Origin: Bacteroidota bacterium
GTDB taxonomy: Bacteria; Bacteroidota; Ignavibacteria; Kryptoniales; JAKASW01
DNA: 64,000 nt
Direction: 5' to 3'
Assembly: GCA_023381615.1 (NCBI GenBank)
Contig: JAMCQL010000075.1
Coordinates: forward strand, 5,500 to 69,499
A program made the translations under genes and the position numbers. The notes under the pieces were generated by a model. The model searched no databases, was not told the DNA's origin, and was given only the letters and a program-made list of their open reading frames with translations. Numbering within the stretch: the first letter of the stretch is position 1; each line of letters begins with the position of its first letter. This document shows positions 34,306 to 60,082 of this stretch, one piece after another.

Positions 34306-34529
34306 ATGAAGAAAGCTTTAATTACCGGAATCACCGGCCCCCGATATGCTTCGCAACGGGGCAGGCAGGACGGTTCCTATCCTACAGGCCTACCGAAGTT
34401 GATATGTTGGTCGGTGATGCATCCAAGGCAAAGGCAAAATTAGGCTGGGAGCCGAAGACAAAATTTGAAGAGTTGGTTAAATTGATGGCGCGAGCCGACT
34501 ACGAGAAGGTGAAGAAGAGAGGGTATTAA
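34306..34529 (+). pseudogene. gmd: mini-gmd: first ~25 codons (with 27-nt hairpin insert) fused out of frame to the last ~48 codons
   Basis: [25 protein letters not shown] | [48 protein letters not shown]. Confidence 0.8.
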
Positions 34530-34650
34530 TGTCCTCGTTCACCTGTATTGGAAGGTTGATGATGCGGAAGTTGTCAGGAAGCTGGGAGGTATCTCACAAG
34601 TCGAAGATTTTTTGAGAGAAGTTTCTAAATTAGCTGCCTGAACCCATTAT

Positions 34651-34716
34651 CATTACAATAATCCAGAGATCAGCGGCAAGAAGCTCTTTCTTCATCACGG
34701 CGATGTGACTGATACA
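34651..34716 (+). pseudogene. gmd: internal gmd scrap
   Basis: [22 protein letters not shown]. Confidence 0.7.
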
Positions 34717-34983
34717 AGAGACGTGGACGAAGAGTCCATTTCGTGGAAACTTATATTTGGTTCTGACACAGATTTGCAACTCTCGTTTTCAAAATGGGGG
34801 TTCTCGTTCACGTCTCAAGGGCATCTCTAAAAACTAATTTGTTTCACCGCGGAGACGCAAAGACGCTGAGAAAAAATTATAAAAAAAGATACTCTGCGAC
34901 TTCGCGCCTTTGCGGTGAAAAATATTTTGGGGTTTTTCGAGATACCCTCAAGTAATTTGAATCGCCTTTTGGAAAAGATTATT

Positions 34984-35073
34984 CCCGATGAGATATACAA
35001 TCTTGCGGCAATTGAGATAGTCTCATTTTTGAAGAGGGTTTCGAAAAACGAGTCTATAGAAGCACTTGTGCTA
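34984..35073 (+). pseudogene. chimeric scar: gmd PDEIYNLAA joined directly to a DUF2283 C-terminus
   Basis: PDEIYNLAA|IEIVSFLKRVSKNESIEALVL (compare 33668..33868 ...IEIVSFSKRVSKNEALEAIAL). Confidence 0.6.
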
Positions 35074-35122
35074 TGTTTTTGCTCGCGGACGTCCATTTTG
35101 CTAGGGTAGGTTTGTAAGTTGT

Positions 35123-35596
35123 ATGAAGACAGAAGATCTGTTCCAAAGATTTCTTGAAGTTATCGATGCACTTGAGAAAGAAAAAGTCGATTATCTCCTT
35201 GTCGGCGGGTTTGCAGTCGTTTTACATGGAATGCCACGGCTTACACAAGATTTAGATCTCTTTGTTAAAGCAAATGGAGATAATATTGCCCGATTACAAA
35301 AAGCCTTGTACTCCGTATTCGATGATAAAAGTATTTTTGAGATTACAAATACGGAGCTTCAAAATTATCCTGTAATTCGCTATGGATCGGATGAAGGATT
35401 TTCTATCGATGTCATTTCAAGAATAGGAGAGTCTTTTGCGTTTGAGGATCTGCAGTACGAGGAGTTGAATGTTGATGGACACACGGTAAAAATAGCAACG
35501 GCGGAAACGCTCTACCGGCTTAAGGAAAAAACATATCGTGCTATTGACCAAAACGATCTAATTTTTTTGAAAGAATTAATTTCCCGAAAGAAATAA
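35123..35596 (+). CDS. small nucleotidyltransferase-fold protein (putative TA component)
   Basis: VDYLLVGGFAVVLHGMPRLTQDLDLFV motif. Confidence 0.6.
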   Translation: MKTEDLFQRFLEVIDALEKEKVDYLLVGGFAVVLHGMPRLTQDLDLFVKANGDNIARLQKALYSVFDDKSIFEITNTELQNYPVIRYGSDEGFSIDVISRIGESFAFEDLQYEELNVDGHTVKIATAETLYRLKEKTYRAIDQNDLIFLKELISRKK

Positions 35597-35827
35597 ATGC
35601 CGGTTCAAAAATTCAAAACCTTTGATGAAGCTTCTAAAGCTTTATGGAACTTCGCCCCAGACGAGGATTATTACAAAAGGGTAGAAAACTTTTATAAGCT
35701 TGCTTCCCAGCTAATTACTCTTTCTGCTATGAGAGGCATTTACAAGTTTCACGATCTTGAAGAAGTCGAGCAACATCGAATGGAATTTTTGTTGCAGAAC
35801 AGTTTACCCCGGGGGCGCAAAAAATAG
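35597..35827 (+). CDS. small hypothetical protein abutting the nucleotidyltransferase gene
   Basis: ATG immediately after the upstream TAA. Confidence 0.45.
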   Translation: MPVQKFKTFDEASKALWNFAPDEDYYKRVENFYKLASQLITLSAMRGIYKFHDLEEVEQHRMEFLLQNSLPRGRKK

Positions 35828-36464
35828 AACAATTTCAAGAAAGTTTCAATAATCGGACTCGGCTGCATTAAACTTCGGACGGTGGCTGTGCTCGCTCGCG
35901 GATGTCCATTTTGCCAAGTTGGGTTCGTAAAAGAATGACGGTTAGCCATGCGTGTCGAACTTTTCATACAACTTCGATTCGTGATCATTCGTGACATTCC
36001 CCGCTGAGGCGGGGCAGGCTGTGGAAGATATGTTCGTGACATTTGTGGAAGAAAAGTTAGCGTACATTCGTGAAGAAGATCACTTTTCATCGCTTCGCAA
36101 AATACGACCTTTTAACCTTGAACCCTGAACCCCGAACCGAAAACAGGACAACAGAGATAGCGTCTATCTACCTACGGTATCGTAGATACGAGGTCGATGA
36201 CTCTCTACGAGACCGTAGGTCGACTCGTCGAGCCGTAGGCCGTAGGTACGACTCGTCGAGGTCTATCGACCTCCACGAGTCGTCGACTCCTCGGAGTCGT
36301 AGACCGAAGGGTCGTGGACAAGTCGTTGACCTGCGGACTGGCGTCGTATTCAAAGTGGGCTTATACCGTATCAGCCTCTGCTCGGCGGTCATCGTGAATG
36401 GCGCATTGGTTGTATCTACATGATGCGTACCAGCTGTTCTCCCTTGTTGCTATGAGCCGCGTAA

Positions 36465-36702
36465 ATGGGTAAATACGATAAGCTGTTATCAAAGATACTC
36501 GAAGGAACTTCTGATGCCAATATACGGTTCGATGAATTGTGTCAGTTACTGCTTAAGTTAGGATTTGAAGAGCGCATTTGCGGTAGTCATCACATTTTTA
36601 GAAGAGAAGGTAAATCTACAGCGAGATGCAGACAAGGCGAAAATGTACCAGGTACGCCAGGTCCGCAATGTGATTCTGAAGTATGGATTGAGGTTATCAT
36701 GA
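36465..36702 (+). pseudogene. hicA: HicA-family toxin, frameshifted
   Basis: N-part ...GSHHIFRREG. The C-part VNLQRDADKAKMYQVRQVRNVILKYGL is in the +1 frame (compare intact 57258..57509). Confidence 0.6.
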
Positions 36703-36920
36703 AGAGAGATGGGAAGATGAAATATGTGAAGAGAAGAAAGCTTGCAGATTTCTCGAAAGACCGGGAAGAGATGGACTATTGGTCCTCAAGAACGATTGAG
36801 GAGAGACTTGAGGCTGTCGAAATCCTCAGGGCGCGGTGGCAGAAGTTCAACGAATCAAAAAGAGGAAATGGAGACTTCAAAGGACTTCGAAGAGTTCTTC
36901 GAGTTACTCAACTCTCGTAA
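36699..36920 (+). CDS. small hypothetical protein
   Basis: ATGA overlap with the hicA remnant; EEMDYWSSRTIEERLEAVEILR. Confidence 0.4.
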   Translation: MKRDGKMKYVKRRKLADFSKDREEMDYWSSRTIEERLEAVEILRARWQKFNESKRGNGDFKGLRRVLRVTQLS

Positions 36921-37308
36921 AGTCCGCTACATGGTCGTCGGCGGGTATGCATTTGCCGTCCACGCAAAGCCAAGGTACACCGGCGATATAGATGTTTTTG
37001 TAGATTCGAGTATTACAAACGCGCAGAATTTACTGAAAGTTCTTGAAGAGTTTGGTTTCGGTGAATTGGGCATATCCCTGGAAGATTTGACGAAGGCCGA
37101 TCAGGTGATCCAGCTCGGTAATCCTCCGCTGAGAATAGACATCCTGACATCGATTTCCGGTGTGTCCTTTCAGGAAGCATGGAAAAACAAAATAACAGGG
37201 AAATATGGCGAGCAGGGAGTCAATTTCATCGGCAAGGCTGATCTGATCAAGAACAAGAAAGCATCCGGACGAAAAAAAGACATGCTTGATATTGAGGATC
37301 TGCAGTGA
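36868..37308 (+). CDS. small nucleotidyltransferase-fold protein (paralog of 35123..35596)
   Basis: ATG 36868 after AGAGGA; VRYMVVGGYAFAVHAKPRYTGDIDVFV. Confidence 0.6.
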   Translation: METSKDFEEFFELLNSRKVRYMVVGGYAFAVHAKPRYTGDIDVFVDSSITNAQNLLKVLEEFGFGELGISLEDLTKADQVIQLGNPPLRIDILTSISGVSFQEAWKNKITGKYGEQGVNFIGKADLIKNKKASGRKKDMLDIEDLQ

Positions 37309-37356
37309 GTTTGAAACATTTTGGATGTCGTCTGTTAGCGCTCCTTACATAACAAC

Positions 37357-38002
37357 ATGAAGAAGGCCTTGATAACCGGCATCGCCGGCCCCCGATATGC
37401 TTCGCAACGGGGCAGGGAGGACGGTCCCTATCTTGCTGAACTTCTTTTAGAAAAGGGCTACGAAGTTCACGGGATAATCCGACGAAGCAGCTCGTTCAAC
37501 ACCGGCAGAATTGATCACCTCTACAATAATCCAGAGATAAACGGCAAGACGCTATTCCTTCATTATGGTGACGTTACCGATACAAGCAATCTAAACAGGC
37601 TGCTCAAGAATGTCGAGCCGGATGAGATATACAACCTTGCGGCCCAGAGCCACGTCAAAGTCTCATTTGAGGTGCCGGAATATACGGCTGAGGTGGATGC
37701 TGTGGGCACGCTTCGTTTTCTCGATGCAATAAGAGAGACGGGCTTAAAGACGAAATTCTACCAGGCGTCAACGAGCGAACTCTTCGGCAAAGTGCAAGCG
37801 GTGCCGCAAAATGAGAAGACTCCCTTTTATCCGCGAAGCCCTTATGGCGTTGCTAAGCTGTATGGGTACTGGATCATTAGCGAAGAAGGAATTAGGATGG
37901 GAACCGAAGACGAAATTCTCCGAATGGATCTCTTCGGGAGAGGAGTTGGTCAAATTGATGGCGCGGGCCGATTATGAAAAGGTCAAGAAGAGGGGGTATT
38001 GA
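37357..38002 (+). pseudogene. gmd: gmd with large internal deletion (about 175 N-terminal codons + ~40 C-terminal codons, out of frame)
   Basis: Track ORFs 37357..37977 and 37811..38002. Has the 27-nt hairpin insert and a second 24-nt insert (SEWISSGE) in the C-terminal part. Confidence 0.85.
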
Positions 38003-38070
38003 GGTTCAATGTTTCGGGTTCAAAGTTCTGAGTTGTGGGTTCGGGATGCGGAGTTGATGGTTAGTGGTTG
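38003..38070. repeat. heptamer tract in reverse orientation (GGTTC-type)
   Basis: GGTTCAATGTTTCGGGTTCAAAGTTCTGAGTTGTGGGTTCGGG directly after the mini-gmd stop. Confidence 0.7.
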
Positions 38071-38200
38071 TTATCGGAATTTCAGTCTGTTTTAATGATA
38101 TTAGAAAGCATGTGAAAGGAGAGCGAGGACAGCAATGGCAGATATTTATTGGAGAAAATACATAAGAAGCAAAATAAGTTAGAGAGTGGGTGCGTGTACT

Positions 38201-38436
38201 ATGGAAAACGATTTAATTCAGCGAATCACAATAAACCCTGATAATTTGGTGGTAAGCCCATTATACGGGGTATGCGAATTGCGGTGGAGCATATTTTGGG
38301 CATGTTAGCTGCCGGGTCAACGACAGAGGAGATATTAGAGGGATATCCTTATCTTGAAAGGGAGGACATTCAAGCATGTTTATTGTATGCCTACCGACTT
38401 TCCGCACATGAACGCTTTGAGGCAGTCACGTCGTAG
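38201..38436 (+). pseudogene. DUF433-family antitoxin-like gene, frameshifted
   Basis: MENDLIQRITINPD... then GMRIAVEHILGMLAAGSTTEEILEGYPYLEREDIQACLLYA in another frame. Confidence 0.6.
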
Positions 38437-38552
38437 TGAAATTCCTGGTAGATTCATGTTTGTCGCGGTTTGCTGTGGAAGCTCTCCATCGGAACAATAC
38501 CGTAGAGCGGTTCCGAGTTCGGATAAAATATCCTGGGGACAAGGAAATATGA
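38436..38552 (+). pseudogene. truncated DUF5615-like (PIN-like) partner
   Basis: VKFLVDSCLSRFAVEALHRNN...; 38 codons only; TAGTG overlap with the upstream gene. Confidence 0.35.
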
Positions 38553-38903
38553 ATACAAATGATATGGCTCTGTTCAGCTGATGCGCTCGCCGTCAATGCT
38601 TCAGGCCGCTCGTGGGACTCTGTGCGCCATGCACTTTGCTTGTTTAACATCGAACCTTTGCGCCTGAGGTCGATCTACGGCCTACGGCTCGACGAGTCGA
38701 CCTACGGTCTCGTATCTACGATACCGTAGGTAGAGAGTCATCGACCTCGTATCTACGATACCGTAGGTAGATAGATTCGTAGAACGGCATCGTAGATTGA
38801 CGACTCGTCGAGGGCATCCGCCTTCGGCGGAGAACCCAGAACGCCGAACTTCGAATCCGCCTCATTCGAGTTGGCGCTCGGGCATACGGTTGTCAATTTA
38901 TGA

Positions 38904-39170
38904 ATGAGAGATGCAGGGAGTGCTAATTTGGCCAAGAGCAATCTTGAGATTACAAGGCATGCCAGGCGGCGAATGAAATGGAGGAGAATAACAGAAGAAG
39001 ATGTCCGCGCCACGATTGATGAGCCCGACAAAACCGAAGAATCCGTTAGCGGCAGGAAAAACGTTTACAAAGAGATCGGTGTGAGGTATATTAAAGTGAC
39101 CTACAGAGAGATTGCCAATAAATTAGTGGTGATTAGTGCAGTTGATAAAGGAAAAGGAGAGATGAGATGA
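38904..39170 (+). CDS. DUF4258-like toxin
   Basis: LEITRHARRRMKWRRITEEDVRATI...LVVISAV. Confidence 0.7.
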   Translation: MRDAGSANLAKSNLEITRHARRRMKWRRITEEDVRATIDEPDKTEESVSGRKNVYKEIGVRYIKVTYREIANKLVVISAVDKGKGEMR

Positions 39171-39385
39171 AAATAGAGTATAGCAAGGATGCCGACGCTA
39201 TTTATGTTTATTTCAAAGAGGATTTCGTGGCACAGTCGAAGGAGGTAGAAGACGGTGTCGTGATAGATCTCGATGAGAAAGGGCACCTTATCGGCGTTGA
39301 AGTGCTGGATGTAAGCCGGCGATTTACCCTCTCAGATATCGCTAATGTGAATATCGAAAATCTTCCGGTGGAAATTGCAGGGTGA
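39167..39385 (+). CDS. DUF2283-family protein
   Basis: MKIEYSKDADAIYVYF...GHLIGVEVLDVS. Confidence 0.85.
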   Translation: MKIEYSKDADAIYVYFKEDFVAQSKEVEDGVVIDLDEKGHLIGVEVLDVSRRFTLSDIANVNIENLPVEIAG

Positions 39386-39494
39386 TCCCAAAGATTTGTG
39401 AACATGCATCGAGCGGGAATGTTGATGCCCATCTGCCTTCTTGCCTCTTGCTGCCCTTTGCTGCTGCCCGAGCTTTGAACGCTTTGCTCCTTGC

Positions 39495-39593
39495 CCTCTA
39501 CGAGGCCGACGGCTCCTCTACGAGTTTATGAACTCGAAGAGTTGTAAACCTACGGGCCTACGGCTCGACGAGTCGAGTCATCGACCTCGTAGA
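39495..39593. repeat. composite word element, inverted partner of 41748-41882
   Basis: A 60-nt stretch (CTCTACGAGGCCGACGGCTCCTCTACGAGTTTATGAACTCGAAGAGTTGTAAACCTACGG) is the exact reverse complement of 41823-41882. Confidence 0.75.
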
Positions 39594-39745
39594 GGAGATA
39601 GGGAGAGCGAGAGAAGCGGGGAATGACGACGCTGGGCAACGTTCTTGAATGTCTATTGATGCTGCGCTATTTTAATTGTGGTCAGTTTTCAACGAAAGTT
39701 AAATGATCCAATGGGAACGGAACGTCTCTTGTGACTTTGGATAAA

Positions 39746-39811
39746 GAGAAGGGATACAAAGTCCACGGGATAATCAGAAGAAGCGGTTCGTGCGATATCG
39801 GCAGGATCGAC
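39746..39811 (+). pseudogene. gmd: degenerate gmd scrap
   Basis: [22 protein letters not shown]. Confidence 0.6.
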
Positions 39812-39900
39812 TGTTGTGCTTCAGATTGAAGTGTCCCGACAAGGGTCGGGATCCTGCGGAGAATTTTCTCGGATCAAATTAAGAGAAAAGGAGACAGACA

Positions 39901-40167
39901 ATGGAATTTTACACAATGGTATTGAGAAAGAGCAAGTCAAATTGGGTAGCGCTCTGCCTTGAAAATGGATTGGTAGGGCAGGGTGCCACAAAAGATGATG
40001 CAGCTAGAAAACTCAGAGAGGCCATAGAGTCTTTTGAAGAAGAACATGAAAGAAACAGAGATGTATATAGTGCACCTTTATCTATAGAGGAATTGCATGA
40101 ATTCCTATCTGTTGAGGGGAAGGAGCCTGTTATTGAGGAATATGAACTAAGGGCGGTGCATGCCTAA
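39901..40167 (+). CDS. hicB: HicB-family antitoxin
   Basis: YTMVLRKSKSNWVALCLENGLVGQGATKDDAARKLREAI. Confidence 0.75.
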   Translation: MEFYTMVLRKSKSNWVALCLENGLVGQGATKDDAARKLREAIESFEEEHERNRDVYSAPLSIEELHEFLSVEGKEPVIEEYELRAVHA

Positions 40168-40398
40168 AAATATACCTGCTCTTAAACCACGAGAACTTGT
40201 CAGGATTCTTGAAACAGGCGGATGCTTGTATTTGCGAGAAGGCAAGGGAATCACAGGTTGTATTTTCGTTATTGTGAAGGAAGGAAGAGAGTTGTTCCAA
40301 TTGATATGGGAGCAGGAGAGTTGTCCCCACCGTATGTCTTGCGTATTTTTAGACAATTTGGTTTTACCGATGAAGAGGTAGAGACTTTATTAAAGTAA
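40160..40398 (+). pseudogene. hicA: HicA-family toxin, frameshifted near 40290
   Basis: MPKNIPALKPRELVRILETGG... then VVPIDMGAGELSPPYVLRIFRQFGFTDEEVETLLK* in another frame. Confidence 0.6.
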
Positions 40399-40615
40399 CT
40401 TTTCTGTTCCTGCTTCTCGGATTTTGTCTGTTCGGTTTGCTTCTTAGTCATGACTTGCTCGCTATCAACCTTGAACCCCGCACCGCGAACCATCACCGAT
40501 GAAAATGGAGTGGTGGGTAATTGAAGTTTCTCTGCTGGTGCTTTATTTTGTTGACACGAAGAGTTCTTGCCGCTATTCAGCGGGCGGATGAATCCGTTTT
40601 AGAAAGTGATGAACA

Positions 40616-41747: not shown

Positions 41748-41882
41748 TATCTACGATACCTCTACCTACGGTATCGTAGATACGAGGCCGTAGGCCGTAG
41801 GTACGACTCGACGAGCCGTAGGCCGTAGGTTTACAACTCTTCGAGTTCATAAACTCGTAGAGGAGCCGTCGGCCTCGTAGAG
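41748..41882. repeat. composite word element (partner of 39495-39593)
   Basis: See 39495-39593. Confidence 0.75.
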
Positions 41883-42340: not shown

Positions 42341-43650
42341 GTAGTCTTGTACGTAAGTTTGATGACGTATTTATTTAAGCGCATTTGCGGATAGTATCGG
42401 CCCAAGGCTGCAATTTTTCTATGACGTTGTCAAGATCTTGTCGTGTAAATTTCCATTGGAACGGTTTGGCGATTTTTTCGTAATAGTTTTGGAAATCTAT
42501 TAAGCGTTTCTCAAGACCTTGCGTGGATTCAAAATCATTGGGGGTCAATACTTTTCTTTGGACAACTGAGAAATAGACTTCTATTTGATTTAACCAGCTT
42601 GCATGCACCGGCAGGTGAACTGGGGCGATTGTGGGCCATCTTTGTGTAAGCCTTTTTACACAAGCGTCTCCACGATGTGAGGAACCGTTATCGAGAACCC
42701 AAAAGACACGCTTAGCGGACCTGTATGGATATTGAGACATCACTTGCTCCACCAAAGCGTCGAAGGAATAGATTCCAGTAGTTTCTTCGCAGCGTCCAAA
42801 AATCTTTGCTCTATGAACATCCCGTGTTGCCAAATATGCTAATGCACCCAATCGTTCATATTCGAATTCCGTCTTCATCCTAACAAAGTGACCGTCACTT
42901 CAAAAGTGACGGTCACATCCTCGGTGAGGTCGTGAGGTGGCGTTGTTAAATGAATGCGATGCCGCGCTTGAATACTGGTCTTTTCATCCGCACTGATCAC
43001 GAATTCATCCTCACTCAACGGCTGGCCATTCCACATCCGGTGATACAAATCCAAAACAATCCCAGCCTTGCGCTGAAAATCTGGGTCGCGAGGGAAAATC
43101 CAACTGCGATACTGCCATGGTTTAATAGCGTCCTCATCAAGCCAACGCCAGACTGTCGTTCCACTGATAGACGCAGCAATACCTCGCTCAACGACCAGAT
43201 GAGCGATTTCCCGCGTGGTAAATCGGGACAGTGGTTTGTCAAATTCCAACGGCAATTGGCAAGCCAAGGCTTTCACTTCAATTGCGACTTGAGGGGGAAA
43301 AAGCAGGGGGTCTTCCCTGTCGTGCCTCATCCTCAAGCCCGAGCAGCCGTTTTTCAAAGAACCGTTTTCGCCACTTGCTTACGATCTGTCTGGGCAAATC
43401 TACTCTGCGAGCAATTTCGTCGTTTCGCATTCCTTCGGCAGCATAGAGAGCTATCTTTGCTCTGACAACTCGAAAATAAGGCGACGTATACTTCCGAGTT
43501 TCTTTCTCGAGAATCTGTTTTTCCTCCTGCGTCAGCAGTATCGTGTATGGGCTCTTCCTGGACATATTTTTCCTTTTCGAGTGTGTCTCTAAAAGGAGAA
43601 TAGGCCATTTAACATAATAATTGTCAAGCACAATACGTTATCGTATTTAT
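42340..43650 (-). mobile_element. IS630-family insertion sequence, inactivated
   Basis: Transposase split into three track ORFs (43278..43631 HTH, 42875..43357, 42375..42878 DDE part). One frameshift lies at a C5-T5-C5 slippery stretch. A ~45-nt GTGACCGTCAC hairpin insert with a stop lies at 42880-42925. Element ends are approximate; GTACTAAGT occurs at 42324 and 43659. Confidence 0.75.
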
Positions 43651-43926: not shown

Positions 43927-44196
<270 letters not shown>

Positions 44197-44331
44197 TGTG
44201 GATCTGATCGCCTTTCGTTTGGACAAATCAGTTCGAAGTCGGACGCTGCTCCATTATGTGGCCTGCAGGCATTAGTGGAGATTTCGGTAGAGTTTTATGA
44301 TATTGTCAGTGGGTTGTAAGGCTGATGAATT

Positions 44332-45170: not shown

Positions 45171-45415
<245 letters not shown>

Positions 45416-45814: not shown

Positions 45815-46030
45815 AAGTCCTTCAGGATCTTGCCGCGATTACTCTCTTAGACTGACATCATGCGAGAAGGGCAGGAAACGGTCAAAGAACCCATTTGGTG
45901 GATTCAAACATGACCAGACGCCAGTGGAGTGAGAGATTCTGATTATGGGAAGGACGTCTTAGATGTGGAATAGTCAATGGTGGTATGATAACTTTATTTT
46001 TTTATATGATGAAAAGGAAGCGTTAAGGTC

Positions 46031-46306
46031 ATGATGGAAACAAAGACAGCATATAAGTATATCGTGAAAAAATACGGGGATAATGAACCTGTAATCGAGA
46101 ACACGAGGATTTGTGTTAGAGACATTGTGGAACAATGGAGACTCGGCTCAACTCCGGAAGAGATTACGATGGCATACCCGCATATAAATCTGTCTCAGGT
46201 TTTTGAGGCATTGGCTTATTATCAAGATAATATGGGCGAGATCGAGCATTTCATTGAAATAAACAAAGTCTCGGAGAGTCTTAGTGGTAAGCCTTTATCT
46301 CGATGA
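46031..46306 (+). CDS. DUF433-family antitoxin-like protein
   Basis: NEPVIENTRICVRDIVEQWRLGSTPEEITMAYPHINLSQVFEALAYY. Confidence 0.8.
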   Translation: MMETKTAYKYIVKKYGDNEPVIENTRICVRDIVEQWRLGSTPEEITMAYPHINLSQVFEALAYYQDNMGEIEHFIEINKVSESLSGKPLSR

Positions 46307-46508
46307 GGATATTCACGGGCTTTTGGCGGTATTGTTGAGGGCAAGAAACATATCGGTTGAGACTACGCAAGAAAGCAGAATGCTCGGCAAAGAAGATCGG
46401 GAACAACTGGAGTATGCGACGAAGAGAGGCGCTGCCATTGTGACCCACAACAGGGTCGATTTCGAGAAGTTATTTGCAGATTATACTGATATGGGCCATA
46501 AGCTATGA
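46284..46508 (+). CDS. DUF5615-family (PIN-like) toxin-like protein
   Basis: LYLDEDIHGLLAVLLRARNISV...AIVTHNRVDF; GTG start overlapping the DUF433 gene. Confidence 0.7.
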   Translation: MVSLYLDEDIHGLLAVLLRARNISVETTQESRMLGKEDREQLEYATKRGAAIVTHNRVDFEKLFADYTDMGHKL

Positions 46509-46543
46509 GCTATCAGCAAGATTGCCATGAGCTATTACAATCC

Positions 46544-46736
46544 TGAACCCCGAACCAAGAACTACGAACTCTGAACTTCGGACTCTTTGCCCTTTGCTCC
46601 ATGCGCTATGCCATTTCACCCTCGAGCCTTGAACATTCAACTTTGAACTTTTATCACTCCGAACTCTGAACCTTGAACCACGAACCAAAAACTCGGAACG
46701 TTGAACATCTCAACCCCGAACATCGGACCCTGAACG
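46544..46736 (+). repeat. long heptamer tract (interrupted by a TTGCCCTTTGC word block), no gmd stub after it
   Basis: Read directly. Confidence 0.8.
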
Positions 46737-48652: not shown

Positions 48653-49095
<443 letters not shown>

Positions 49096-49130: not shown

Positions 49131-49547
49131 ATGAAGATTACTAAGTTTGAAGAAATCGAGTCGTGGAAAGAGGCGAGGACTTTGACGAGCAGCATATACA
49201 ACTTGACCCGGCAGTCGGGGTTCTCTAAAGATTACGGCCTCAAGGACCAAATACAGCGTGCCTCCGTTTCGATTATGGCAAACATAGCTGAAGGTTTCGA
49301 TGCAGGGACCAATAAAGGCTTCATAAGTTTCCTGAATTATGCATATCGCTCCGCGTCTGAAGTCCAGTCGTTGCTTTACGTTGCTCTGGATCAAAGCTAC
49401 ATCACGGAAGACGCCTTTCGAACGAATTATGATGATGCTGCGACGATTAAAAAACTTATTGGGGGGCTAATCAAATATCTCGAGTCATTCGACGGCAAAG
49501 CGCGACGTAAGCCCTTGCAACCACGCACCAAGAACCATGAACCTTGA
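49131..49547 (+). CDS. four-helix-bundle protein (23S rRNA intervening-sequence protein family)
   Basis: MKITKFEEIESWKEAR...QIQRASVSIMANIAEGF...RSASEVQSLLYVA. Confidence 0.85.
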   Translation: MKITKFEEIESWKEARTLTSSIYNLTRQSGFSKDYGLKDQIQRASVSIMANIAEGFDAGTNKGFISFLNYAYRSASEVQSLLYVALDQSYITEDAFRTNYDDAATIKKLIGGLIKYLESFDGKARRKPLQPRTKNHEP

Positions 49548-49863
49548 GCACTGAACCCCGAACATGGAACACCTGAGAGGCGATTACCCTCAGTTCTATA
49601 ACGAGTACTTTGCGGCGAGGCAGATCAAGGACGCGGGGATGAGGCACAGACCGGCAGAGCCGGCTCCGCCGCCAGCGCAGAAGTGAGGATGATCCAGGAT
49701 ACAAGGGTGATATAGATATAAGTGACCGTCATCTTAAAGATGACGGTCACTTATGCTTCGGATGTGATTGCGTGTTTGAAAGTAAAGGATTTAAGAACAT
49801 TGTGACACGGAGGCACGCCGCACTGGATTTGACTATTCAAGTGGCGCGAATCAAAACCTCGGG

Positions 49864-52256: not shown

Positions 52257-52636
<380 letters not shown>

Positions 52637-54311: not shown

Positions 54312-54432
54312 GTACCCCGACCCGACAACTACGAACTCTAAACGCAGGCCTCCTAACCCTGAACCCCGAACCTTGAACCCCGAACCACGAACTCCGAACC
54401 CAGAATCCCGAACCAAGAACAGCGAACCTGAA
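54312..54432 (+). repeat. heptamer tract
   Basis: GAACCCCGAACCTTGAACCCCGAACCACGAACTCCGAACCCAGAATCCCGAACCAAGAACAGCGAACC. Confidence 0.8.
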
Positions 54433-55172: not shown

Positions 55173-55605
55173 AGAACCTCGATGTTAAATTCCGACTCTC
55201 GTTACTGATTACTGTCTCTTGCCATCTTTCCGCTGACTGCTAAATGCTGATATGTTTTAACTATTCACTTTTCATTTTTCACTGCTCCATCAGCGAGGCC
55301 TAACCCGCCTCCAGTTGTTCCTTTGCCTCGGTCACAGAAGCAATAGAGCGCGTGAATGGTAGACAGTAGGTAGGGGGTAAGTAGTGACCTGCACTGCTAT
55401 GGCAAGTCACGCGGCGGCCGTGGGCTTAGCAAAGATGCAGGAAGGGCAGGAAACGGTGAAAGGACCCATTTGGTGGGTTCAGACATGACCAGACGCCAGT
55501 GGAGTGAGAGATTCTGATTATGGGAAGGACGTCTTAGATGTGGAATAGTCAATGCTGGTATGATAACTTTATTTTTTTATATGATGAAAAGGAAGCGTTA
55601 AGGTC

Positions 55606-55881
55606 ATGATGGAAACAAAGACAGCATATAAGTATATCGTGAAAAAATACGGGGATAATGAGCCTGTAATCGAAAACACGAGGATTAGTGTTAGAGACAT
55701 TGTGGAACAATGGAGACTCGGCTCAACTCCGGAAGAGATTACGATGGCATACCCGCATATAAATCTGTCTCAGGTTTTTGAGGCATTGGCTTATTATCAA
55801 GATAATATGGGCGAGATCGAGCATTTCATTGAAATAAACAAAGTCTCGGAGAGTCTTAGTGGTAAGCCTTTATCTCGATGA
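55606..55881 (+). CDS. DUF433-family protein (near-identical copy of 46031..46306)
   Basis: One aa difference (RISVRD here, RICVRD in the other copy). Confidence 0.8.
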   Translation: MMETKTAYKYIVKKYGDNEPVIENTRISVRDIVEQWRLGSTPEEITMAYPHINLSQVFEALAYYQDNMGEIEHFIEINKVSESLSGKPLSR

Positions 55882-56083
55882 GGATATTCACGGGCTTTTG
55901 GCGGTATTGTTGAGGGCAAGAAACATATCGGTTGAGACTACGCAAGAAAGCAGAATGCTCGGCAAAGAAGATCGGGAACAACTGGAGTATGCGACGAAGA
56001 GAGGCGCTGCCATTGTGACCCACAATAGGGTCGATTTCGAGAAGTTATTTGCAGATTATACTGATATGGGGCATAAGCTATGA
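55859..56083 (+). CDS. DUF5615-family protein (identical translation to 46284..46508)
   Basis: Track ORFs have the same sequence. Confidence 0.7.
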   Translation: MVSLYLDEDIHGLLAVLLRARNISVETTQESRMLGKEDREQLEYATKRGAAIVTHNRVDFEKLFADYTDMGHKL

Positions 56084-56116
56084 GCTATCAGCAAGATTGC
56101 CATGAGCTATTACAAT

Positions 56117-56214
56117 CCCGAACCCCGAACTACGAACTAAGAACCCCTAACTTCGAACCCCGAACCTTGAACCTCGTACCACGAACTCCGAACCCAGAAC
56201 CCCGAACCACTAAC
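56117..56214 (+). repeat. heptamer tract abutting a gmd stub
   Basis: ...GAACCCCGAACCTTGAACCTCGTACCACGAACTCCGAACCCAGAACCCCGAACCACTAAC-ATG. Confidence 0.85.
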
Positions 56215-56277
56215 ATGAAAAAAGCTTTGATCACTGGCATCACCGGTCAGAACGGTTCCTACTTTGTTCAATGTTGA
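56215..56277 (+). pseudogene. gmd: gmd 5' stub (17 codons)
   Basis: [16 protein letters not shown] then FVQC*. Confidence 0.75.
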
Positions 56278-56324
56278 ACGTTTATAATGGGTTTTTGATA
56301 TTATGCTAATGCAGGAAAGGAACT

Positions 56325-56612
56325 ATGCCAATTCCAGTAGAAGTTAGACCGCTTGATAGATATCGGTTGTGGGTGAAGTACTCAGACGGGACTGAGGGCG
56401 TTGCCGATTTGTCGGACCTTGTTGGCAAGGGAGTCTTTGCACTCTGGAATGATTATGAAGAATTTAAGAAAGTTCATATAGGCGCGAGCGGCGAAATTGC
56501 CTGGAGCGAGCAGATCGACGTGTGTCCGGACGCAATCTATCTTAAGATTAGCGGCAAGAAACCCGAAGACTTGTTTCCGCGATTGAAAGAAATGACTAGT
56601 CAGCGTGCCTGA
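56325..56612 (+). CDS. DUF2442-family protein
   Basis: LWVKYSDGTEGVADLS...IAWSEQIDVCPDAIY. Confidence 0.8.
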   Translation: MPIPVEVRPLDRYRLWVKYSDGTEGVADLSDLVGKGVFALWNDYEEFKKVHIGASGEIAWSEQIDVCPDAIYLKISGKKPEDLFPRLKEMTSQRA

Positions 56613-56865
56613 AATCAGCCGCTTCTTTGGCATTGTCATCAGGATGTACTTTGACGATCATTTGCCGCCACACTTCCACGCAGAGTACGGTGAATATAAG
56701 GCAGTTGTGGAAATTCAGAGCCTGATGGTTATTGGCGGCTACTTTCCACCGCGCGCATTGGGATTGGTTGTTGAATGGGCAACGCTACATCGTGACGAGC
56801 TGCTTGAAGTCTGGGACAGGGCCGTCAAACTGCAGCCCTTACCGAAGATTCCGCCACTTACATAG
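56605..56865 (+). CDS. DUF4160-family protein
   Basis: MPEISRFFGIVIRMYFDDHLPPHFHAEY. Confidence 0.85.
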   Translation: MPEISRFFGIVIRMYFDDHLPPHFHAEYGEYKAVVEIQSLMVIGGYFPPRALGLVVEWATLHRDELLEVWDRAVKLQPLPKIPPLT

Positions 56866-57257
56866 CAATAGGACACTGGCGGATGTCAGGGTGCGGCACA
56901 GGGACTACTTGATAACGCTGAGCACGCACCCTCGCATATTTAACCTTGAAAAATTTGCTGTGAGCTATCAACTAAATCAACCACGAATCCGTCTCTCCGA
57001 GCCGAGCGCTTCGACGCGAGGTCCCGCCATAAATGATCCGGACGGGCCGGATCTTCGACAACGGACCCCGGACTAAGGACCGTTTGATGCAAAGTGGTTC
57101 TGCAGGTGGATTATTTTAGTGATTGTTCCTGTTCCGGAGAGAAGCTTTCAGAAATTGAATCTGTGATTGTGCAACCGCAGCCTTTCAACTCCAAACTCAG
57201 CACCCAGAACCTTCTAGCGTGAGACAACGAATCAGGCAATCTGAGGGAGTGATGTAA

Positions 57258-57509
57258 GTGAAGGACAAAGTGCTGAGCACGGTGCTTTCCGGGTTGTCGG
57301 ATAAGAACGTAAGATTTGAGGATTTGAGAAAGTTGCTTTTGAGACTGAATTTTACCGAGAGGAACAAAGGAGATCACCACATATTTCATAAGGAACATGT
57401 GGCTGAGATCATAAACCTGCAACCTCTCAATGATGGCAAGGCGAAAGCGTATCAGGTAAAGCAGGTAAGAAATCTGTTGCTGAAATACAAACTGCATAAT
57501 GAGGGATGA
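57258..57509 (+). CDS. hicA: HicA-family toxin (intact)
   Basis: GDHHIFHKEHVAEIINLQPLNDGKAKAYQVKQVRNLLLKY; GTG start. Confidence 0.8.
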   Translation: MKDKVLSTVLSGLSDKNVRFEDLRKLLLRLNFTERNKGDHHIFHKEHVAEIINLQPLNDGKAKAYQVKQVRNLLLKYKLHNEG

Positions 57510-57510
57510 A

Positions 57511-57720
57511 ATGCACAGGTATGAGCTCGTTATTTACTGGAGTATGGACGACGCATCTTTTGTGGTTGAAGTACCTGAACTTCCAGGGTGCATGGCTGAC
57601 GGGAAGACCTATAATGAAGCGGTGAAGAATGCGGAAGTTGCGATCGATGAATGGATCGATACAGCAGAAGAATTAAAGAGAGAGATACCCAAACCTAAAG
57701 GCAAACTGGCGTACGCATGA
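57511..57720 (+). CDS. hicB: HicB-family antitoxin
   Basis: YELVIYWSMDDASFVVEVPELPGCMADGKTYNEAVKNAEVAI. Confidence 0.8.
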   Translation: MHRYELVIYWSMDDASFVVEVPELPGCMADGKTYNEAVKNAEVAIDEWIDTAEELKREIPKPKGKLAYA

Positions 57721-58703
57721 TTCGTCTTCCGTATGACTATCTGTATTTCCATGCGGCTTTGTCGAAGCCTGAACGGCGAACCACGAAGCGGGATCGCTAT
57801 GCCCCGTGCACCCCGTCCCGAACTTCGAACCAGGAACTAAGAACCTTTCACTGCTTACCACTATCACCTATGAGCCCAATTGCCATCAGCTAATTCAACC
57901 CCGAACCACGCACTACGAACTCTGAACTTCGAACTCTATGCGCCATGCTCTTTGCTCTTCAACCCTGAACACACAACATGCAAGGATTAAGTTTGTGTGA
58001 AAAAGATCATAGGAGTTGGAAAACGCTCACAAAGCTCTTGAAGTCTTCCTGCGGCTCTATTATATTGAGGCCAGAGATTTTTTTTGAGCGTCGGTTGACC
58101 AATCAAGCTTACTTGCAGAGAGCACCGGAAGAAACTCTGTCGCTATGTGCCATGAGCGAAAGCAGCTGATAGTCGCAGATCCGCCTCCGGTGGACAGTTA
58201 GCTCATAACTGATAGGAAGAAAAGCCTGTTTTGGTTTCCTGCGGTTGCTATGAGCCATGAGCCACAACCTATGAGCTACCCTGTGAGTGAGTCACCGCAA
58301 GTCGGGATCGCGACAAGCGCGAATGGCGAAGCCGACCGAAGGGAGGTGGCGCTGAAAGCGCCACTGGGTCCGATGGGACTCAGATGGCGAAGCTGTGAGA
58401 AGAGCGTGGTGCAGAGAGCATGGAGCAAAGAGCATAGAGCGGGAATGAGGAGTTCGGAGGATCGTGATTTCGAAGTGCTGTCTCCTCCCGCATTGCGAGA
58501 AGAGACGAGCCGCGACTGAGTCGGGCGAATTTCGGATCGGTAATCAAATTAATCCTATAAATCCTGGTCGAAATCATGAGAATCCCGGTCCAAGATGCAA
58601 GGTGCCGGCGGCGAGCATGAATCGGGTACCCCGGATCCTCTTACGGATCACTTCGAACCTTAAATTGAGAACCTTTGAATCCGCGGCAAAATGTTGAGGG
58701 GCA

Positions 58704-58967
58704 GTGAAGAAAGTCGAGATCATTCCAGTCGCGCAAAGAAAAGCAGAGAAACGGGGAATAAAAGTCGAATGGATAACTGATGCAGTTACAAATCCTGCTC
58801 AAGTAGTAAGTGGCTATGGCGGAAGAAGGGTCGCGCATAAGTTGATTTGGATTGACGAAAAGGAATATCTTCTGAGAGTCGTTTATGAGGACGACAACGA
58901 GGTGTTTACCGTCGTGACAGCTTATATTACGTCACAGATAAAACGTTACTGGAAGGAGGAAGAGTAG
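58704..58967 (+). CDS. DUF4258-like toxin
   Basis: AQRKAEKRGIKVEWI...YLLRVVYEDDNEVFTVVTAY. A 3' scrap of a paralog lies at 33125-33158. Confidence 0.65.
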   Translation: MKKVEIIPVAQRKAEKRGIKVEWITDAVTNPAQVVSGYGGRRVAHKLIWIDEKEYLLRVVYEDDNEVFTVVTAYITSQIKRYWKEEE

Positions 58968-59186
58968 ATGAAAATAGAGTATGATCCAAAGCATGATCTT
59001 TTGAACATTGAGTTTATCCCGGGTGAGAGTATCGGCGAGTCCAGCGAAACCGATGGAGTGATTATCGATTACGCAAAGGACGGCAGGATAGTCGCTATTG
59101 AGATTTTGGATGCGGGAAAGCGGACGACCAGAAACCCGCTCGATCTGCTTGACCTTTCCATAGTGAAGGAGAAAGCAACTGTATGA
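58968..59186 (+). CDS. DUF2283-family protein
   Basis: MKIEYDPKHDLLNIEF...GRIVAIEILDAG. Confidence 0.85.
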   Translation: MKIEYDPKHDLLNIEFIPGESIGESSETDGVIIDYAKDGRIVAIEILDAGKRTTRNPLDLLDLSIVKEKATV

Positions 59187-59370
59187 TTATGATAATGTTT
59201 GGCTTAATGCCGGAACCGGTCGGCGGCAAAATCTCCTCTTTGACTCGCCGCCAGGAATAAGGCCTCGAAATCTCAGAACACTTCGAACCATGAACCCTGA
59301 ACATGGAACCCTGGATCTCTCATGTGGAGTCTACCCCGTTTTCAACGGGGCTCTCTGCTCCATGCGCCCA

Positions 59371-59498
59371 ACCACGAACCACGCACCAAGAACCATGAAC
59401 CTTGAACACCGAACCCTGAACATTGAACGCTGAACATCTAACCCTGAACCCCGAACCTTGAACCTCGTACCACGAACTTCGAACTCCGAACCACTAAC
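59371..59498 (+). repeat. heptamer tract (~17 units) abutting a gmd start
   Basis: ACCACGAACCACGCACCAAGAACCATGAACCTTGAACACCGAACCCTGAACATTGAACGCTGAAC...GAACCACTAAC-ATG. Confidence 0.85.
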
Positions 59499-60082
59499 AT
59501 GAAAAAAGCCCTCATCACCGGTATCACCGGCCAGGACGGCTCATATCAAGCCGAACTTTTACTCGAGAAGGGATACGAAGTCCACGGGATTATCAGAAGG
59601 TCCAGCTCTTTCAATACCGGACGTATTGATCACCTCTACAATAATCCTGAGATAAACGGCAAGACGTTTTTCCTCCACTACGGTGACGTCACCGATACGA
59701 GCAATTTGAACAGGCTTCTTGAGAAAGTGGAGCCCGATGAGATATACAACCTGGCAGCCCAGAGTCATGTCAAAGTCTCCTTTGAAGTGCCTGAATATAC
59801 CGCCGAGGTAGATGCCGTTGGCACTCTTCGTTTCCTCGACGCGATAAGAGAGACAGGACTTAAAACGAAATTTTACCAGGCATCGACGAGTGAACTTTTT
59901 GGCAAAGTCCAGGCTGTCCCCCAGAATGAGAAGACTCCGTTTTATCCGAAGTTGATATGTTGATAGGTGATGCTTCGAAAGCAAAAGAGAAGCTCGGCTG
60001 GAAGCCGGAGATAAAGTTTGAACAATTGGTTAGCCTGATGGCGAAAGCCGATTTCGATGAGGTGAGGAAACGAGGTTTTTAG
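59499..60082 (+). pseudogene. gmd: gmd with internal deletion (~150 N-terminal + 44 C-terminal codons, out of frame)
   Basis: ...EKTPFYP|[44 protein letters not shown]. Confidence 0.85.

Follow-up and report, generated by a model that had tools for sequence, protein, structure and literature searches.

A stack of dead gmd heads at the left edge of a surface-polysaccharide cluster and its possible origin by recombination

The locus and its gmd remnants

The window, a 64,000-nt stretch of DNA, carries a surface-polysaccharide locus in which a NusG-like gene, wza and wzz are followed by an array of gmd pieces, fcl and sugar genes. The gmd pile spans 26 kb (34.3-60.1 kb), with the export genes on one side and those for sugar synthesis on the other. 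Pieces of gmd were located by tblastn using E. coli Gmd and a close Gmd as queries. This search recovered eight start-containing stubs and three internal scraps in the array, all on the + strand, and no intact copy, in agreement with a first-pass annotation that had described eleven partial copies. The pieces accumulate in one orientation at the head of a gene cluster. A degenerate gmd start pattern gave four matches, with none expected.

27412..28050, + strand: NusG/UpxY-like transcription factor gene at the polysaccharide locus head (PF02357 NusG)
28705..31119, + strand: wza-type polysaccharide export protein (Poly_export and SLBB domains)
31920..33005, + strand: wzz-type chain-length determinant (Wzz and GNVR domains), the last intact conserved gene before the array
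34306..34529, + strand: gmd remnant 1, ~17 codons with a 27-nt insert, continuing out of frame into the last 48 codons (tblastn)
34654-34731, + strand: internal gmd scrap, codons ~51-76 (tblastn)
34948-35010, + strand: internal gmd scrap, codons ~71-91, fused to a DUF2283 scrap (tblastn)
37357..38002, + strand: gmd remnant 2, codons 1 to ~169 with a 27-nt insert, joined to the last ~39 codons (tblastn)
39716-39811, + strand: internal gmd scrap, codons ~17-48 (tblastn)
44002..44295, + strand: gmd remnant 3, 5' end only, then a nucleotidyltransferase/HepT pair (tblastn)
45263..45402, + strand: gmd remnant 4, ~36-45 codons plus a 27-nt insert (tblastn)
48890..49086, + strand: gmd remnant 5, ~46-50 codons, then the last 6 codons and a GTTC trailer
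49131..49846, + strand: relic of an older cluster head, with an IVP gene (23S_rRNA_IVP four-helix-bundle family) and a weak fcl scrap (codons ~24-47)
52437..52636, + strand: gmd remnant 6, ~36 codons plus a 27-nt insert, fused to the last 19 codons, then a DUF433 scrap
56215..56271, + strand: gmd remnant 7, 17-23 codons, then a DUF2442-DUF4160 pair
59499..60082, + strand: gmd remnant 8, the current head, in which codons 1 to ~152-155 run out of frame into the last 43-45 codons
60478..61542, + strand: DUF433-DUF5615 pair and IVP (23S_rRNA_IVP family) gene, lying between remnant 8 and fcl
61602..63144, + strand: fcl mosaic
63250..63999, + strand: glucose-1-phosphate cytidylyltransferase-like gene, start of the downstream sugar cluster, running off the window (93% identical to the L018 NTP_transferase)

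Four stubs were fused out of frame to gmd 3' ends (34383-34529, 37862-37999, 52577-52636 and 59945-60082), as first annotated. A fifth case had been missed at 48890, where the last six codons (VKKRGY) and the trailer were recognized by eye in the sequence. Retention of the gmd 3' end in five of eight stubs points to internal deletions of whole genes rather than displaced 5' ends. Codons ~170-300 were absent from every copy in the array by tblastn, and YxxxK was kept only in remnant 2. The 27-nt insert, common to four stubs, lies in the cofactor-binding loop. Remnant 3 is clean to about codon 60, with weak homology to about codon 96, and remnant 4 abuts the mid-portion of a DUF7718 gene, which variant L068 carries intact. 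The DUF433 scrap after remnant 6 resembles one after remnant 8, and the IVP of the older relic shares 84% amino acid identity with that of L018. Units 5, 6 and 8 each open like a cluster head, with a deleted gmd followed by DUF433 and/or IVP, then fcl. The fcl gene is broken too: its first part (codons 1 to ~207) ends in a frameshift in an in-gene heptad tract that is one heptad short, and codons ~192-300 and then a second partial copy (~123-318), with its heptad tract in frame, follow.

These pieces form a series of gmd decay stages, from a full-length pseudogene with a nonsense codon and a frameshift in the sibling strain L231, through five internal deletions and three 5'-only stubs, to three scraps. 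The 78 gmd loci compared from other species were all single copies without stub arrays, full-length except for a few cut by contig ends.

The array cargo, classified by Pfam domains, comprises ~30 small toxin-antitoxin-type genes and one IS630-like element. Cargo, repeat and heptad features of the array are listed next.

38004..38042, - strand: inverted (GTTC) heptad trailer, immediately 3' of the gmd stop codon of remnant 2
42375..43631, - strand: IS630-like DDE transposase split into three ORFs (DDE_3 and HTH domains)
45860..46583, + strand: left copy of a 724-nt repeat, carrying a DUF433-DUF5615 pair, 97% identical to 55435-56158
55435..56158, + strand: right copy of the 724-nt repeat, break point of short-read assemblies
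59376..59491, + strand: longest GAACCYY heptad array

The longest heptad array contains 14 units with a GAAC match over ~17 heptad positions and stops 7 nt short of the gmd ATG. Comparable arrays lie upstream of six of the eight stubs and of the fcl start, and a GAAC heptad leader preceded the ATG in none of the 78 loci from other species. Cargo of this toxin-antitoxin type is common to several genomes: that of the window was 90-97% identical to the cargo beside the deleted gmd of L068, where the stub was 74.5% identical.

Authenticity of the array and divergence of its copies

Contigs from different samples reproduced the junctions of the first six stubs at 99.9-100% identity to the window: a MAG contig at NCBI, a JGI contig of 61 kb and several megahit contigs from ENA. 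All six lay inside the one JGI contig, of which 34332-54751 was read here, and four lay inside the MAG contig and inside ENA contigs assembled from other samples; three further contigs reproduced the junctions of the last two stubs. The sole link uncrossed by an independent contig was the 724-nt repeat at 55435-56158. There, the SNPs of the right copy fit variants L007 and L008 (0 versus 10 mismatches), in agreement with the window arrangement, and the length and range of the JGI contig indicate that it should hold the left copy and the start of the right one. Many strain variants coexist within samples and short-read contigs break at this repeat, as would suit an assembly chimera in which the heads of several co-occurring strains were strung together via shared repeats; against these contigs and copy-specific SNPs, such a chimera is extremely improbable. 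The recurrence of the junctions in independent contigs, together with the mostly synonymous differences between copies, bears out the earlier view that the copies are not assembly stutter.

Pairs of stubs differed at pS 0.3-0.8 and pN 0.02-0.14, with most pairs near synonymous saturation and pN/pS at 0.03-0.2. The low pN relative to pS indicates divergence under selection for a working enzyme, and the stubs thus descend from different, once-functional gmd alleles. By their sequences, they are judged not to be recent in-place duplicates. In the identity matrix, the nearest relatives of stubs were not array neighbors, and the correspondence between relatedness and array order raised in the first-pass annotation was absent. 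Stub 48890 (90% nucleotide identity) and its IVP gene (84% amino acid identity) resembled the head of L018, another lineage, more than any window copy.

Several observations would nevertheless fit tandem duplication in place of a single gmd-plus-toxin-antitoxin unit, followed by decay: gmd followed by DUF433-DUF5615 recurs in units 2, 6 and 8, the copies of the 724-nt repeat are 97% identical, and stubs 45263 and 52437 are 92% identical and, as noted earlier, break at the same nucleotide, between ...AGCAGCTCC and TT. Decaying duplicates would show pN/pS near 1 rather than the values observed, and duplication would account at most for the 45263/52437 pair and the 724-nt repeat. As an explanation of the array it is very unlikely.

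Exchange at the current cluster head

The stub beside fcl was confirmed to be internally deleted, having lost codons ~155 to ~312. Variants from other strains and lineages, at least seven of them, shared this junction, and at least six variants combined it with an open frame of 154-155 codons at 93-95% amino acid identity. In every variant compared, the deleted gmd stood at a cluster head, and it headed at least four different downstream clusters: IVP-fcl-rfbF in the window and L018, an rml-type cluster preceded by an fcl stub in L007, a GT4/flippase/Wzy cluster in L222, and an intact fcl in L226. L228, of a second lineage, carried a small gmd stub and the deleted gmd, both downstream of wzz.

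Comparison of L226 with the window revealed only 2 mismatches over 55885-59547 and then 39, confined to 59548-59965; these co-occurring strains are thus near-identical over 3.6 kb upstream and 10% divergent within the stub. L007 diverged completely from the window from fcl codon 34 onward. Recombination tracts therefore start and stop within the 59499 stub and the fcl 5' end, and deleted alleles were mosaics, with identity per 45-nt window ranging over 49-98%. Alternative clusters have the stub as their boundary, and the first-pass identification of the gmd 5' end with its heptad leader as a site of exchange holds.

The array had been tentatively ascribed to site-specific integrative elements that target the gmd 5' end and bring a replacement leader and 5' end. 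Consistent with such elements, stubs and cargo alternate in one orientation and a conserved leader precedes most stubs. However, no integrase was found among the called genes at 34-64 kb, where the only transposase/recombinase-type gene was the split IS630-like DDE gene, and the cargo lacks an element-like gene set. The 5' breakpoints of the eight stubs fell at seven different codons with no shared core site. Five stubs keep a 3' end, gmd is not restored at the array end, and the sibling strain L231 has a full-length gmd killed by mutations. Site-specific elements are therefore highly improbable. What stands of the earlier interpretation is the independent origin of the alleles, their single orientation at a cluster head and exchange at the gmd 5' end.

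Among deleted alleles with the common junction, pN/pS was 0.05-0.12 in the 5' part and 0.2-0.5 in the 3' part, which argues against plain decay after a single deletion. To account for these alleles, the junction must have spread by recombination, working alleles must have converted them repeatedly, or the stub itself must have been under selection; the four 27-nt-insert stubs, which differ mostly synonymously, pose the same puzzle. One alternative is that the deleted gmd at 59499 persists for its usefulness, acting perhaps as a small protein with a Rossmann fold or in cis, with the leader and translated start needed for the downstream cluster to be expressed. The shared junction and open frame, the low 5' pN/pS and the constant cluster-head position are consistent with this explanation, but about half of the fold and the catalytic YxxxK motif are missing from the stub, the L068 copy carries an in-frame stop, and conserved residues near the junction are changed in some variants. 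Read in its old frame, the out-of-frame 3' piece likewise gives pN/pS below 1, suggesting inherited divergence rather than present selection. A useful stub is, on this evidence, quite unlikely.

Proposed origin and relation to known systems

We consider it somewhat probable that recombination at the left edge of a hypervariable surface-polysaccharide cluster left the array behind as a scrapyard, and that no site-specific mobile element produced it. The head in these uncultivated bacteria would run, downstream of wza-wzz, from a C/A-rich heptad leader through gmd, often DUF433-DUF5615, and IVP to fcl. Strains would exchange the sugar-gene cluster by homologous recombination, with crossovers landing in the conserved head. 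Several swaps in the window lineage may have been additive and one-sided, incoming DNA joining downstream of the resident head, illegitimately or via short homology, instead of replacing it, so that old heads were displaced upstream. Nonsense mutations, frameshifts, internal deletions and truncation would then have eroded redundant gmd copies, while toxin-antitoxin modules moving between these genomes inserted among the old heads. Such addictive modules probably limit large clean deletions, so that the wreck persists. Junctions cut into toxin-antitoxin genes at 45402/45403 in the window, and also in L222; their surroundings are thus not fully protected by such genes. No strain pair differing by exactly one unit was found among the strains compared, which is counted against the scrapyard reading. 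Also counted against it are the pN/pS values of the deleted alleles with the common junction, the mostly synonymous differences among the 27-nt-insert stubs, and the heptad arrays, to which it gives no explained role.

Cassette accretion would instead add stub-plus-cargo circles, looped out in a donor by recombination between neighboring stubs, taken up, and integrated Campbell-fashion into the resident gmd 5' end. It is the first-pass idea with RecA replacing the integrase: the stub would be a portable homology handle, with toxin-antitoxin cargo making gains hard to undo. The stubs are all direct repeats and are mosaic, with recombination tracts within them; between genomes, cargo is far more alike than stubs; and the recombinase gene missing from the array is not required. 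Yet accretion does not predict the gmd 3' ends of five stubs, several stub-cargo junctions are plain deletions into adjacent genes, and neither circle junctions nor a strain lacking exactly one unit were seen. We regard accretion as unlikely.

O-antigen and capsule loci are exchanged at conserved flanks, such as galF/gnd in E. coli and dexB/aliA in pneumococcus. To our knowledge, described O-antigen cluster remnants are single remnants of different genes, unlike the eleven pieces of one gene found here, from divergent alleles and amid ~30 toxin-antitoxin-type genes. The Salmonella galactose-initiated O-antigen set likewise contains truncated sugar-pathway genes left by past recombination (PMC3715488). 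Replacement flexible genomic islands are swapped by homologous recombination in conserved flanks (PMC4033161). Like these islands and O-antigen loci, the present locus has a hypervariable sugar cluster at a fixed position, recombination tracts that end in a conserved edge, and different clusters in co-occurring strains. In contrast to both, its edge is no longer a working flank but a dead gene with an internal deletion, and earlier edges are retained, stacked eight deep, rather than replaced.

Tycheposon arrays at tRNA genes also have partial target copies separating cargo blocks in one orientation, but use a tyrosine or serine recombinase and a fixed core site and restore the target gene at one end (bioRxiv 10.1101/2020.12.28.424599), none of which was found here. 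The proposed mirror image of tRNA islands thus applies to the outcome (stub, cargo, stub) and not to the mechanism. Sedentary chromosomal integrons are similarly one-directional, toxin-antitoxin-rich arrays of small genes with repeated spacers, in which toxin-antitoxin modules are thought to hinder loss (PMC13108822). In contrast, the window has no IntI gene, its spacers are unstructured GAACCYY heptad runs rather than folded attC sites, and many junctions are illegitimate cuts within genes. In transformation merodiploids, pairing of incoming DNA with two distinct repeats leads to a gain of sequence and not to replacement, as shown in pneumococcus with recent identical duplications (PMC3784515). 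Here, natural-transformation merodiploidy is only a possible route for additive joining.

Swapping of polysaccharide clusters and remnants of their genes are of kinds already known; what sets this locus apart is a stack of dead gmd heads eight deep.

Remnants of gmd in a surface-polysaccharide locus

Fragments of gmd were located by tblastn with E. coli Gmd and the closer Gmd of comparison locus L017 as queries. Eight start-containing fragments, every one on the + strand, were found in the window together with three internal scraps, and codons ~170-300 were absent from every copy. The stubs are named here by start coordinate and counted in this order as units 1 to 8.

34306, + strand: gmd stub, ~17 codons kept
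37357, + strand: gmd stub, ~169 codons kept
44002, + strand: gmd stub, ~60 clean codons kept, with weak homology to ~96
45263, + strand: gmd stub, ~36-45 codons kept
48890, + strand: gmd stub, ~46-50 codons kept
52437, + strand: gmd stub, ~36 codons kept
56215, + strand: gmd stub, ~17-23 codons kept
59499, + strand: gmd stub, ~152-155 codons kept
34654-34731: internal gmd scrap
34948-35010: internal gmd scrap
39716-39811: internal gmd scrap

The first 33 kb of the window consist of ordinary intact genes ending in ugd, a NusG-family gene, wza and wzz, and the array is followed by fcl and then by a cytidylyltransferase gene. This places the array inside a surface-polysaccharide locus, with the export genes on one side and the sugar genes on the other. 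At 618-3774, genes for a DnaD-like protein and a DnaB helicase, of replication type, precede a partial tRNA match (3721-3774); this segment may mark the end of an integrated element and has no relation to the array.

None of the copies reaches the length of a working Gmd (PF16363, ~340-370 residues with Rossmann and substrate domains), the longest comprising codons 1 to ~169 and 1 to ~155. The GxxGxxG cofactor loop is unbroken at 44002, 48890, 56215 (with a D to N change) and 59499, whereas in 34306, 37357, 45263 and 52437 a 27-nt in-frame insert splits it. The catalytic residues of a working enzyme (Ser/Thr plus YxxxK) were also incomplete, with STSE retained at 37357 and 59499 and YGVAK at 37357 only, a copy without the remainder of the protein. 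As the first-pass annotation had described, the stubs at 34306, 37357, 52437 and 59499 are fused out of frame to the last 19-48 codons of gmd, those at 45263 and 52437 break at the identical position, and the last copy, beside fcl, is internally deleted. The last copy is deleted likewise in at least six other variants. When the sequences were read by eye, the stub at 48890 was also seen to keep the final six codons (VKKRGY) and the normal post-stop sequence. Since 37357 retains codons 155-169 and 34306 retains ~4 more 3' codons than 59499, at least three of the internal deletions were independent and arose from longer genes.

The arrangement was compared with contigs from independent assemblies, retrieved by exact-protein look-ups. 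A contig of an NCBI metagenome-assembled genome (MAG) was 100% identical to window positions 18705-41119 and differed by 1 mismatch over 34332-47270, and a 61-kb JGI contig was 99.98% identical over 34332-54751. In ENA megahit assemblies of several samples, contigs span 21-37 kb and 36.7-46.4 kb; three further contigs cover 55.9-61.7 kb. Thus, each stub is internal to at least one independently assembled contig. The weak point of the path is a 724-nt repeat (45860-46583 versus 55435-56158, 97% identical) at which short-read contigs end; ten copy-specific differences in its final 274 nt agree with the window arrangement. Population polymorphism was seen past 47270, where the NCBI contig runs into a group II intron reverse transcriptase missing from the window, and at 36744, where two ENA assemblies part from the window into an apparent insertion-sequence end. 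The source organism is uncultivated.

The neighboring fcl is also broken in the window, running from codons 1 to ~207 through a frameshift into codons ~192-300 and then into a second partial copy (~123-318). As assembled in the window, it contains a partial tandem duplication (61967-62428 versus 62490-62967) whose copies are just 79% identical, indicating that this fcl is a mosaic of two alleles. One independent contig, L225 (1,084 nt), covers the fcl start; it carries the exact 215-codon ORF of 61602-62249, and its expected end is approximately the duplication boundary. An in-frame tract of heptanucleotide repeats within fcl encodes repeats such as EPRTxNx and varies in length among alleles (window 62199-62244 and 62722-62774; L018, 7072-7096; L226, ~6330-6380). 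Relative to the second fcl copy, the first lacks exactly one heptad (7 nt) and loses its reading frame at that point; fcl could be switched on and off by the number of heptad units.

Cargo genes and repeats within the array

The short ORFs between the stubs proved by Pfam analysis to be mostly genuine small genes with toxin-antitoxin-type domains. Judged from domain calls, they are organized as pairs of putative type II toxin and antitoxin genes. The domain pairs were HicA/HicB, Polbeta-NTase (nucleotidyltransferase)/HepT, BrnT/CopG, DUF433/DUF5615 (five occurrences) and DUF2442/DUF4160, accompanied by PemK, UPF0175, and DUF4258 with either an MqsA-like zinc finger or DUF2283. The sole transposition gene in the array is a split IS630-like (DDE_3) transposase on the minus strand. 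Units 5, 6 and 8 open like the head of a polysaccharide cluster, each with a deleted gmd. In unit 5 this gmd is followed by an IVP gene (23S_rRNA_IVP four-helix-bundle family) and a weak fcl scrap, in unit 6 by a DUF433 scrap, and in unit 8 by DUF433-DUF5615, another IVP gene and fcl.

Runs of the heptad GAACCYY end 2-8 nt 5' of the ATG in six stubs, and the fcl start sits within one; the leader remnant consists of two heptads at 34306 and of the final 12 nt only at 37357. Directly after the gmd stop codon, inverted GTTC runs are present in three window copies and in L018 and L068. Imperfect GAACCYY runs form 23 arrays in 33293-62774 (36% A, 37% C, 16% G), with one heptad array outside that range. 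Nearly all are on the + strand and inside the polysaccharide locus, where they occupy most spacers separating toxin-antitoxin modules and positions directly 5' of the gmd and fcl starts. Predicted RNA folding found the heptad spacers nearly structureless (-0.1 to -7 kcal/mol over 80-130 nt). These runs may be Rho entry sites overridden by a NusG-like factor, unstructured translation leaders or recombination-prone spacers. GAACCYY heptads were not found in the downstream sugar-gene cluster of L007 or beyond fcl in L018, and nothing relevant on heptanucleotide arrays tied to toxin-antitoxin genes was found in the literature. A search of viral contigs for a six-unit GAAC heptad pattern returned at least 120 matches, all of them unrelated period-7 repeats and uninformative.

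Other repeats were observed in and around the array. A family of 60-100 nt, partly palindromic repeats sharing the core CTACGGCCTACGGCTCGACGAGTCGACCTACGGTCTCGTAGA is found in either orientation, within the array and beyond it, and looks like a REP- or MITE-type element. Further period-7 and period-14 tandem repeats (GAGGTCA, TCTGACC and others) lie in the spacers, and the intact ugd (UDP-glucose dehydrogenase, 488 codons) contains in-frame tandem-repeat tracts. In general, this part of the genome appears prone to heptad repeats.

45175-45254, 54361-54427, 56120-56207, 59376-59491 and 61562-61614: examples of heptad arrays
24966-24983: heptad array outside 33293-62774
23319-23380, 28251-28395, 31127-31206, 36163-36263, 38657-38775, 39495-39606, 41760-41888 and 47386-47472: palindromic repeat family
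41275-41319, 47192-47211 and 33976-34006: other period-7 and period-14 tandem repeats
24622-26088: ugd
24966-25042 and 25818-25856: tandem-repeat tracts in ugd, with units GAACGGC (~3x), ATTTCGG (~5x) and AAAGGCAC (~5x)

Exchange among stubs, strains and lineages

Between stubs, 0.3-0.8 of synonymous sites and 0.02-0.14 of non-synonymous sites differed, a ratio of ~0.03-0.2. A ratio near 1 is expected for copies decaying where they lie; divergence therefore took place while the stubs belonged to working genes, and they were assembled later. An identity matrix revealed no link between similarity and position in the array; the closest pairs were 45263 and 52437 (92%), 34306 and 48890 (89%), and 48890 and the L018 head of another lineage (90%). 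The stubs are foreign to one another. The stub at 44002 lacks the insert, yet over its following 80 nt it shares 94% identity with the 52437 stub, indicating that stubs also exchanged sequence among themselves.

Comparison with other strains and lineages placed the current head of the array, unit 8, at the boundary of alternative clusters. The same deleted gmd is followed by four different clusters across the window and four comparison loci.

Window and L018: IVP-fcl-cytidylyltransferase
L007: 32-codon fcl stub, then an rml-type cluster
L222: GT4/flippase/Wzy, no fcl
L226: intact fcl allele

L226 differs from the window by 2 mismatches in 55885-59547 and then by 39 in 59548-59965, all within the stub and across its junction. 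L007 matches the window exactly as far as the end of the stub, diverges from it in a patch at 60684-61083 and shows no similarity past fcl codon 34. Thus, recombination tracts begin and end in the stub, and the locus combines the fixed position, the differing content in close strains and the tracts ending in the flank that characterize replacement-type polysaccharide islands.

Every stage of gmd decay is present in the population. In another strain, L231, a gmd of full length, with TGG changed to TAG and a frameshift late in the gene, is followed by the same type of cargo. In the L228 lineage (wzz 88% identical) the order is wzz, toxin-antitoxin genes, a gmd stub of 40 codons, further toxin-antitoxin genes and a deleted gmd. 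The cargo itself moves between genomes: L068, whose only annotation is as a Bacteroidetes MAG, has a stub with 74.5% identity to that of the window, followed by genes that match window cargo at 45403-45874, 49787-50009 and 51244-51454 with 90-97% identity, and there the DUF7718 gene cut by the 45263 stub is intact. Among 78 gmd loci of other species (77-91% protein identity), gmd was present as single copies, full-length except for a few cut by contig ends, with no stub arrays and no GAAC heptad leader before the ATG. Some candidates were discarded: an apparent internal deletion in L075 is a run of N marking a scaffold gap, and the split gmd genes of L017 and L021, on contigs named like long-read assemblies, were read as single frameshifts. 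The absence of full-length Gmd among close protein matches was given no weight, since that search yields matches about as long as the query.

The junction within the last stub, ...TTTTATCC joined to GAAGTTGATATG..., at which codons ~155 to ~312 are lost, recurs in L018-L020, L068, L222-L224, L226-L227, L228-L230 and protein P0006, and all of these alleles end in ...PK(L/S)IC. An exact-pattern scan of a metagenome contig collection for the junction gave no match; since a JGI contig is known to carry it, these samples are evidently missing from that collection. The alleles are mosaic, with 49-98% identity per 45-nt window, and their non-synonymous to synonymous ratio is 0.05-0.12 for the 5' part and 0.2-0.5 for the 3' part read in the old frame. 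They still differ like working genes, and plain decay does not account for them. Recurrent identical deletion was set aside and a single origin with later spread through recombination preferred, because microhomology at the junction is only ~3 nt. Most simply, recombination would have carried the junction into divergent gmd alleles, or working alleles would have repeatedly overwritten the stubs; selection may also be acting on the stub at present.

The 27-nt in-frame insert CCCGATATGSTTCGCRACGGGGCAGGS, which contains a CCCCG...CGGGG hairpin, raises the same puzzle of a common feature in alleles that diverged like working genes (34339-34365, 37390-37416, 45296-45322 and 52470-52496). A 33-nt version occupies the same site in the distant gmd of L235 (~1494-1526), which also holds two other ~100-nt insertions with terminal inverted repeats; L235 was rejected as a two-stub array and is one gmd broken by three small insertions with inverted-repeat ends. 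The 27-nt insert may represent a very small palindromic element that favors particular target sites.

Formation of the stack and its meaning

The first-pass annotation had proposed that incoming elements integrate into the 5' end of gmd, in mirror image of islands at tRNA 3' ends. That site-specific model failed on its integrase, its common core and its restored target. No integrase or recombinase was found among the Pfam-annotated gene calls over 34.3-54.8 and 55.9-61.7 kb. The 5' breakpoints of units 1 to 8 fall at approximately codons 17, 169, 60, 36, 46-50, 36, 17-23 and 152-155, and only those of 45263 and 52437 coincide. The target gene is restored at neither end of the array, the copy next to fcl being the deleted one in the window and in the other variants. 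The array therefore differs from arrays of tRNA-type integrative elements in every defining test (bioRxiv 10.1101/2020.12.28.424599). It also differs from an integron (PMC13108822) in having no IntI among the window ORFs, with wza, wzz, the NusG-like gene and ugd upstream. Judged from folding energies, no folded attC sites were evident in the spacers, and an Rfam search returned only two tRNA matches, both outside the array.

Collectively, the evidence supports the array as the recombination-prone left edge of a hypervariable polysaccharide cluster, an edge made up of the leader, gmd, sometimes a toxin-antitoxin pair, the IVP gene and the fcl start. In the lineage of the window, several exchanges would have placed a further head downstream of the existing one instead of replacing it, probably through one-sided or illegitimate joining, and the toxin-antitoxin modules would hinder the large deletions that could clear the remains. 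A related possibility, that stub-plus-cargo circles integrate through the stub by homologous recombination, fits the direct-repeat stubs and the mobile cargo but predicts neither the retained gmd 3' ends nor the junctions that cut into genes. We consider it unlikely that the locus is an integrase-free capture system, in which the dead gmd 5' end, perhaps with the GAACCYY runs, would be a portable homology handle for circles with toxin-antitoxin genes, gained by homologous recombination and toxin-locked; this role would account for the conservation of the deleted gmd across lineages. Such a system would work like an integron without being one.

Hypervariable polysaccharide islands with flank recombination, and gene remnants within such loci, are already known (PMC4033161, PMC3715488). 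In the literature we found no account of a stack like this one, eight remnants deep, in which pieces of a single gene from divergent alleles are interleaved with toxin-antitoxin genes and many variants share the deletion allele that forms the current edge.

Exchange of surface-polysaccharide loci is commonly viewed as a clean substitution bounded by functional flanking genes. In the present locus the flank itself is a relic, and past exchanges are preserved as a readable stack, a natural record of how often the cluster was re-headed and from how distant a donor. Toxin-antitoxin modules colonize the interior of the operon, which offers a natural test case for the idea that these modules block the clearance of wreckage. 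The single deletion junction in alleles that differ like working genes, and the strand-specific heptad runs placed exactly before starts and in frame within fcl and ugd, are left unexplained by plain decay and could each hint at an unrecognized cis function.
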